Shown here piece by piece: positions 22,225-30,768 of a DNA stretch of 64,000 nt. The DNA comes from Escherichia coli. GTDB taxonomy: Bacteria > Pseudomonadota > Gammaproteobacteria > Enterobacterales > Enterobacteriaceae. Position 1 is the stretch's first letter. Each line of letters begins with the position of its first letter. Both the position numbers and the translations under genes were made by a program. Below the pieces are notes generated by a model, which saw only the letters and a program-made list of their open reading frames with translations, had not been told where the DNA came from and did not search any database. The stretch lies in NCBI RefSeq assembly GCF_003334785.1, contig NZ_QOWV01000009.1. The stretch is one strand, 5' to 3'.

Positions 22225-22574
22225 AAATCATACTGCCTGTGGATGTGGTGTTGTAACGTTAAATTTTTGTGCCAATCCCTGGGGATGATACAGCGGTATA
22301 TTTAAACAATTTTAGCGGGAAATACTCCCAACCAGGCGCGGCGAAGAATAGTTTTTCGATTTACCGCGTTAATGCAGTCAGTATGACAGCACCTGAAGCG
22401 CAATTTAAACGCTTATAACGTTTTAAAGCAAGGAGGGATCTAAAAACCAGAGGTATATAGCGATAAGAAATCACCAACCAGTATAAAACACTATTTCCGT
22501 GAAAAAGACATGGCTAATCATGCGAACAAAAAATCACCAACCGTTGTAAAATCTAACGCCCGTATTTTGACTGC

Positions 22575-22603
22575 AAAGAAAATAAGCCAGCATCGACTGG
22601 CTT
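22575..22603 (-). terminator. Putative terminator downstream of phoR
   Basis: Minus-strand hairpin (arms aagccag / ctggctt, 22584-22603) followed by a U-rich stretch (plus-strand aaagaaaat 22575-22583); about 30 nt after the phoR stop. Stem is short, so moderate confidence. Confidence 0.45.
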
Positions 22604-22630
22604 ATGGCAATAAAAGATGACAAAGGCGGA

Positions 22631-30546: not shown

Positions 30547-30768
30547 GCCGGATGCGGCGTGAACGCCTTATCCGCCCTACGCGGTTCTGGCACATTTTGC
30601 AGGCCTGATAAGACGCGGCAAGCGTCGCATCAGGCATCGGAGCACTTATTGCCGGATGCGGCGTGAACGCCTTATCCGGCCTACGGTTCTGGCACCTTTT
30701 GTAGGCCTGATAAGACGCGGCAAGCGTCGCATCAGGCCTGATAAGACGCGGCAAGCGTCGCATCAGGC
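30547..30768. repeat. BIME: tandem REP cluster between araJ and mak
   Basis: Repeated gccggatgcggcgtgaacgccttatccg(g/c)cctac and aggcctgataagacgcggcaagcgtcgcatcaggc units; an approximately 110-bp composite unit is duplicated in tandem with one extra REP copy. Confidence 0.85.

Follow-up and report, generated by a model that had tools for sequence, protein, structure and literature searches.

Promoters controlled by Lrp, such as those of ilvIH, pap and the liv genes, carry multiple phased upstream sites, and for this regulator a SELEX consensus, YAGHAWATTWTDCTR, was reportedly obtained by Cui et al. in 1995. Small lysine-rich peptides do occur in enterobacteria. Both facts are pertinent to the DNA upstream of brnQ, the gene of a branched-chain amino-acid transporter. 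In a passage of PMC4474525 citing Cho et al., brnQ-proY is placed among the Lrp-controlled genes, and brnQ is listed as a GcvB R1 target that has been verified in Salmonella and is conserved in E. coli (PMC9299463). With respect to short reading frames in intergenic DNA, most novel sORFs have been found not to be under purifying selection (Stringer et al., bioRxiv 10.1101/2021.07.02.450978). An initial annotation of a 64-kb stretch of E. coli DNA (the whole stretch analysed, here called the window) had drawn attention to a pair of direct repeats and a lysine-rich ORF of 36 codons between phoR and brnQ. In the following, both are compared with the systems named above.

Organization of the phoR-brnQ spacer

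The minus strand of the window encodes phoB, phoR (23926-22631), brnQ (22224-20905) and proY. The spacer between phoR and brnQ (22225-22630) comprises 406 bp without any annotated feature. Of 5426 complete E. coli genomes, 5425 contain it, each as a single copy, and it keeps a nearly constant size of about 406-410 bp across genera, without an indel at the repeats. For evaluating conservation, 80 brnQ loci were fetched across the Enterobacteriaceae, of which 77 spacers were aligned, and identity at fourfold-degenerate brnQ sites (0.54) served as neutral baseline. An Rfam scan of the spacer gave a chance tmRNA fragment as sole match (8.4 bits, E = 0.37). A literature search with these sequences resulted in irrelevant eukaryotic matches only, while the query 'phoR-brnQ' gave nothing.

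A single transcription start site (TSS) of brnQ has been mapped to K-12 position 418,645 by 54 reads, corresponding to a 5' UTR of 170 nt (Kim et al., 2012, PMC3415461, supplementary file 2), and the sequence published there for the region upstream of the TSS is identical to that of the window. By the conversion K-12 = 418,815 + (22224 - w), where w is the window position, the TSS corresponds to the A at 22394 on the minus strand. Among the entries listed by Kim et al. (2012), no other TSS is found between K-12 418,400 and 418,799. The core promoter (22394-22431, minus strand) consists of a -35 element TTGCTT (22431-22426), a 17-nt spacer and a -10 element TTAAAT/TAAATT (22408-22402); across the 77 spacers, it is near-invariant and its 17-nt spacer invariant. 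A sigma-70 consensus scan of the phoR-brnQ spacer returned zero hits, as the real -10 element breaks the A2 rule of the scanner, and the promoter was consequently positioned from the published TSS. At the other end, a terminator scan detected the intrinsic phoR terminator, a hairpin at 22582-22605 (minus strand) followed by the T-run TTTTCTTT, the stem of which is preserved despite two-sided changes in other genera (GCCAG...CTGGC versus ACCAG...CTGGT). Hence, the initial annotation was right in assigning both the phoR terminator and the brnQ promoter to this spacer. However, with the TSS at 22394, both repeats and the ORF are located upstream of the brnQ promoter and not opposite the leader, by which the previously assumed geometry is corrected.

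Several other peculiarities of the spacer were observed. The 17-nt promoter spacer includes the palindrome AAACG-TTATAAG-CGTTT (22423-22407), and an invariant GATC (22440-22437) lies immediately upstream of the -35 element; judged from these motifs, a factor binding to the core promoter or, alternatively, an effect of Dam methylation at 22401-22440 is suggested. Between the terminator and the phoR stop codon, which they follow immediately, the similar heptamers TTGTCAT and TTGCCAT are found 13 nt apart (22606-22622, TTGTCATCTTTTATTGCCAT in minus sense). Their TGTCA and TT-CCA portions are kept across genera, including Klebsiella indica, and they resemble Pho-box half-sites, albeit with the wrong spacing of 13 rather than 11. 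In Escherichia sp. MOD1-EC7003 (locus L005, 414-1099), six tandem 114-bp units of the REP/BIME type with 96% matches sit between the phoR stop codon and the conserved block A described below, enlarging the spacer to about 1150 bp; an artefactual 232-aa ORF traverses this array.

The direct repeats and the 36-codon reading frame

Two exact copies of AAATCACCAACC are present on the plus strand exactly where they had been reported. The promoter-proximal copy (copy 2, 22468-22479) reads GGTTGGTGATTT in brnQ sense and extends from -85 to -74 relative to the TSS, whereas the distal one (copy 1, 22531-22542) covers -148 to -137 and overlaps block A by 3 nt with its T-run end. The copies are separated by 51 bp, equivalent to 63 bp from start to start, and belong to a longer imperfect repeat of 24 nt, the proximal (22465-22488) and distal (22528-22551) arms of which agree at 20 of 24 positions. 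When the 406-bp spacer is considered alone, such a pair appears unusual, as an exact direct repeat of at least 12 nt was found in 1.1% of 5000 dinucleotide shuffles (P ~0.011) and a 20/24 pair in none of 1000 shuffles, in which the top value was 19. Yet the initial annotation had surveyed the whole window. With REP sequences excluded, the 64-kb window holds four isolated pairs of identical 12-mers no more than 100 bp apart, three besides AAATCACCAACC, compared with 0.24 in block shuffles, so that exact pairs of this kind appear normal for real DNA at window scale. The 20/24 agreement of the longer arms still counts against a functionless pair. Elsewhere in the window, AAATCACCAACC does not occur exactly, and two matches with one mismatch are located inside long ORFs. 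The long direct repeats encountered in the window-wide count, at 30703-30768 and 61720-61916 (GCCTGATAAGACGCG... and GCCGGATGCGGCGTGAACGCCTTATCCGG), are of the REP/BIME type.

The similarity between the two 24-nt arms is restricted to Escherichia. It amounts to 20/24 in the source strain, 19/24 in E. coli E69 and 17/24 in E. albertii, E. whittamii and two further Escherichia species, whereas the arms are unrelated in 69 other Enterobacteriaceae (mean 8.2/24, maximum 14). The proximal copy has an identity to E. coli of 0.435 in 64 non-Escherichia genomes, compared with 0.54 for neutral sites, and the value of 0.67 for the distal copy is raised by its 3-nt overlap with the conserved T-run, while conserved blocks of the same spacer reach 0.86-0.97. 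Even within E. coli the pair is polymorphic: the 41-nt context of the distal copy is identical in 3825 of 5425 genomes and different in the other 1600, with AAATCACCAATC replacing the repeat in K-12 W3110 (11/12) and AAATCAGCAACC in strain NGF1. An operator composed of these direct repeats would therefore be neither conserved in orthologous promoters nor fixed in the species, and the proposal that they form a regulator-binding site, for which conservation in orthologous spacers had been named as the deciding observation, is contradicted by this absence of conservation, by the polymorphism extending to K-12 and by the loss of one copy in one strain. Lack of conservation may still leave room for a lineage-specific function. 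Regarding origin, the 17/24 similarity would already have been there at the base of Escherichia, and two later substitutions in copy 1 (GTCTGG to GGTTGG) would have produced the exact repeat in part of E. coli.

The strain with the loss is E. coli A39 (locus L081, NZ_CP028737.1 3502215-3502557), in which the spacer measures 343 instead of 406 bp. Its junction connects GCGATAAGAAATCACCAACC directly to GTTGTAAAATC, with exactly one repeat and the intervening 51 bp missing. The deletion takes out nearly all of block A, and the annotation still lists both brnQ and phoR as intact. The same 63-bp deletion was found in this genome only (1 of 5426). Judged from the junction, it bears the signature of slippage between the direct repeats. 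Acting as a substrate for slipped-strand deletion of 63 bp would thus be the sole demonstrable consequence of the repeats, a mutational one. The A39 allele also represents a ready-made natural variant for studying the role of the upstream region in brnQ-proY expression.

The ORF (22510-22620, plus strand; translation MANHANKKSPTVVKSNARILTAKKISQHRLAYGNKR) is likewise present. It had been described as antisense to the brnQ leader but, at -116 to -226 from the TSS, lies upstream of the promoter and runs across the phoR terminator in antisense orientation instead. The earlier suspicion of a chance ORF lacking a clear Shine-Dalgarno sequence is borne out, as the 12 nt preceding the ATG (GTGAAAAAGAC) contain neither GGAG nor AGGA and the frame has decayed. 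Over the 77 spacers, its length varies between 7 and 51 codons. At the position of the start codon, six loci have CCG, ACG, CCA or CCC instead, and six more have CTG. Only 15 codons are left in E. coli E69, and two Escherichia loci (L001 and L004) show frameshifts. Among Escherichia, codon positions 1 and 2 account for most of the substitutions (3, 8 and 2; 2, 8 and 6; 5, 6 and 3 at positions 1, 2 and 3, respectively, in three comparisons), resulting in 9-10 amino-acid changes in 36. Outside block A, identity is the same as at neutral sites (0.54). MANHANKK, the only conserved part of the ORF, is block A DNA read in this frame and varies at none of the three codon positions; since these codons show no synonymous variation, the constraint acts on the DNA. 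Moreover, ORFs of at least 30 aa are abundant, with 61 in 5.5 kb. The ORF is missing from the approximately 400 Ribo-RET/Ribo-Api ORFs listed by Stringer et al. (a single dataset), and among the entries listed by Kim et al. (2012), also a single dataset, no TSS on the ORF strand is found for K-12 418,400-418,799. The 36-codon ORF is a chance reading frame and not a gene.

Conserved blocks and putative Lrp sites

Five blocks of the spacer (A-E) are conserved far above the neutral level. Block A (22508-22533, minus strand; TTTTTTGTTCGCATGATTAGCCATG in brnQ sense) is a 26-nt element upstream of the brnQ promoter at -139 to -114, which is near-invariant across the Enterobacteriaceae (identity 0.87 versus 0.54). 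It stays with brnQ in K. indica, in which the gene of a different transporter takes the place of phoR upstream. When block A and the repeats were compared by eye with consensus sequences for CRP, ArgR, MetR, IHF, Fis, PhoB, sigma-54, Fur and the marbox, no fit at the conserved positions was seen. The BaeR box (TTTTTCTCCATDATTGGC) was rejected as an explanation for block A, as the match of 13/18 is at background level, with 15 such matches in the 64-kb window, and the CTNCA core is unmatched. RNA folding of the stretch from the terminator to block A revealed no covariation except in the terminator itself.

Block B (22449-22395, minus strand; identity 0.86) corresponds to the promoter with its invariant spacer and the GATC. 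The remaining blocks belong to the brnQ 5' UTR (22225-22394, minus strand, 170 nt). Blocks C (22380-22335, CTGACTGCATTAACGCGGTAAATCGAAAAACTATTCTTCGCC) and D (22327-22310, GGGAGTATTTCCCGCTAA) are strongly conserved and lie at +15 to +85 of the brnQ mRNA, the former including an 11/15 match to the Lrp consensus at 22344-22358. Block E (22253-22232, ACAACACCACATCCACAGGCAGT) is invariant, with an identity of 0.97. A search for a stable or covarying RNA fold in the 5' UTR was negative (z = -0.79, alifold consensus -5.7 kcal/mol, no covariation), and conservation of the leader is thus not due to a stable RNA fold. A CA-rich site at 22234-22261 (minus strand), which includes block E, is predicted by RNAduplex to pair with nt 63-88 of GcvB at -22.8 kcal/mol. 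This value was computed with the R1 region only; a duplex calculated with full-length GcvB and the UTR paired the whole molecules and was meaningless. The R1 element lies about 215 bp away from the nearer repeat copy and about 280 bp from the distal one and is unconnected with the repeats or the ORF.

The brnQ leader also contains a perfect sigma-54 -24 element (22269-22274, minus strand; TGGCAC-N5-TTTAA, without the -12 GC) that is specific to E. coli. In genomic SELEX, a weak RpoN+NtrC peak (37%) has been assigned to K-12 418,832 in the phoR>brnQ spacer (PMC8743547), about 67 bp from this sigma-54-like element.

With respect to Lrp, the best match to YAGHAWATTWTDCTR in the spacer is TAGTGTTTTATACTG at 22479-22493 (minus strand; 13/15, centre at -92), which extends into the AT-rich end of the proximal 24-mer. 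A second consensus-like site at 22448-22462 (minus strand, centre at -61) scores 10/15 in E. coli, with a family mean of 12.05/15 when the better strand is taken for each sequence and 11.6/15 in one orientation. Further E. coli matches of 11/15 are located at 22544-22558 and 22511-22525. Across the 77 spacers, six peaks reaching 10.3/15 or more are obtained with the consensus at conserved positions, compared with 1.44 on average and never more than 5 for 500 column-permuted consensi, a lenient null, as permutation breaks the AT-rich core of the motif and any AT-rich motif is thereby favoured. The predicted centres at 22551, 22518, 22486 and 22455 (-157, -124, -92 and -61) are spaced by 33, 32 and 31 bp, those at 22486 and 22455 being the most Lrp-like. 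Consensus-like sites at conserved positions about 31-33 bp apart suggest an Lrp array. Of the four predicted sites, the first and the third accommodate the AT-rich ends of the 24-mers, and the exact 12-mer cores, scoring below 11 against the consensus, are placed in the linkers. The 63 bp by which the repeats are spaced correspond to six turns of the helix or to two periods of the predicted array. As Lrp-like sites coincide with the AT-rich ends of the two 24-mers, the repeats could conceivably contribute to the binding of a regulator in E. coli specifically, although we consider it unlikely that the repeat arms indeed assist Lrp binding in this species.

Competing explanations and comparison with known systems

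In our view, the repeats are most probably (about 0.8) a lineage-specific, neutrally evolving and functionless pair in the distal upstream region of brnQ-proY, accompanied by an ORF that is a chance frame. The main contender would be a regulator that acts on brnQ from upstream and for which the repeats mark two sites. The most plausible candidate is Lrp, which would bind cooperatively to positions phased by about 31-33 bp, with 63 bp representing two periods. This is consistent with the reported membership of brnQ-proY in the Lrp regulon, as far as the cited passage of PMC4474525 goes, with the number of conserved consensus peaks in comparison with the permuted consensi, with the 33-, 32- and 31-bp phasing of four predicted peaks and with the overlap of the 13/15 match and the proximal 24-mer. 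In addition, the A39 deletion corresponds to exactly two periods and brings the two outer sites to a distance of 33 bp. However, the GGTTGGTGATTT cores sit between the Lrp-like 15-mers and are themselves off consensus, they are polymorphic and evolve at or below the neutral rate, the peaks at 22518, 22612, 22351 and 22320 can be put down to conserved sequence scoring 10-11/15, and the null distribution is generous to AT-rich motifs. Taken together, this renders regulator sites at the repeats improbable. A somewhat better, still doubtful case can be made for a family-conserved, uncharacterised upstream module of brnQ-proY, consisting of the phased Lrp-like sites and a factor-bound block A, in which the E. 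coli 24-mers would have been homogenised at equivalent positions within a two-site period of a nucleoprotein complex.

A lysine-rich small protein encoded by 22510-22620, or at least a conserved peptide of 8-13 residues beginning with MANHANKK, might be expected from the ATG present in most spacers, the highly conserved first eight codons and the existence of comparable enterobacterial peptides. Against this stand the missing Shine-Dalgarno sequence, the loss of the start codon in six spacers (12 when counting CTG), the length range of 7-51 codons with frameshifts in L001 and L004 and 9-10 amino-acid changes in 36, the absence of synonymous variation indicating constraint on DNA and the lack of an entry in both the Ribo-RET/Ribo-Api and the same-strand TSS data (one dataset each), so that a coding function is extremely improbable. 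Hardly more credible is an origin of the repeats as ends or remnant of a duplication or of a small mobile or REP-like element. Admittedly, direct repeats bordering a 51-bp segment look like target-site or tandem duplications, and REP/BIME arrays have been inserted into the spacer of another Escherichia species. Nevertheless, spacer size hardly varies among genera (about 406-410 bp) and the repeats are not associated with an indel, AAATCACCAACC is otherwise absent from the window and the 63-bp units, when compared beyond the 24-mers, agree at only 8 of 39 positions, which argues against a tandem duplication. A REP/BIME or otherwise dispersed repeat would be expected in many copies, whereas each E. 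coli genome contains the spacer once.

Under the favoured reading of a functionless repeat pair, the function of the spacer would reside in the phoR terminator, the sigma-70 promoter of brnQ, an upstream control region and the 170-nt leader with its GcvB R1 target, the control region being presumably made up of the phased Lrp sites and block A. Neutrality of the repeats, occupancy of the predicted sites by Lrp and a role for block A are in this respect what we infer from comparing sequences, whereas the positions, the TSS, the missing conservation, the polymorphism, the A39 deletion and the decay of the ORF are direct observations. The locus is ordinary with regard to the features initially highlighted: the sequence observation is real, while its functional reading is not. 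Thereby a false lead is removed, as neither a pair of regulator sites nor a small-protein gene is to be sought here. As a by-product, a map of the constrained parts of the phoR-brnQ spacer across the Enterobacteriaceae was obtained, which is modestly useful, and block A is the only item that appears worth testing at the bench.

In comparison with the Lrp-controlled promoters of ilvIH, pap and the liv genes, the gene of a branched-chain amino-acid transporter is here likewise preceded by consensus-like sites about 31-33 bp apart, but at brnQ these are predictions, and the exact repeat cores lie between them and are not conserved. The ORF resembles the non-functional intergenic sORFs described by Stringer et al. 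in lacking a Shine-Dalgarno sequence and purifying selection, and differs from them in not being among the translated ORFs listed there. With 12-nt identical repeats 63 bp apart and their exact natural loss in A39, the repeat pair is similar to known substrates of slipped-strand, RecA-independent deletion, although here the deletion has occurred in only one of 5426 genomes. Finally, the brnQ leader resembles those of GcvB R1 targets such as dppA, oppA and sstT in that it carries the invariant CA-rich sequence ACAACACCACAUCCACA just 5' of the start codon.
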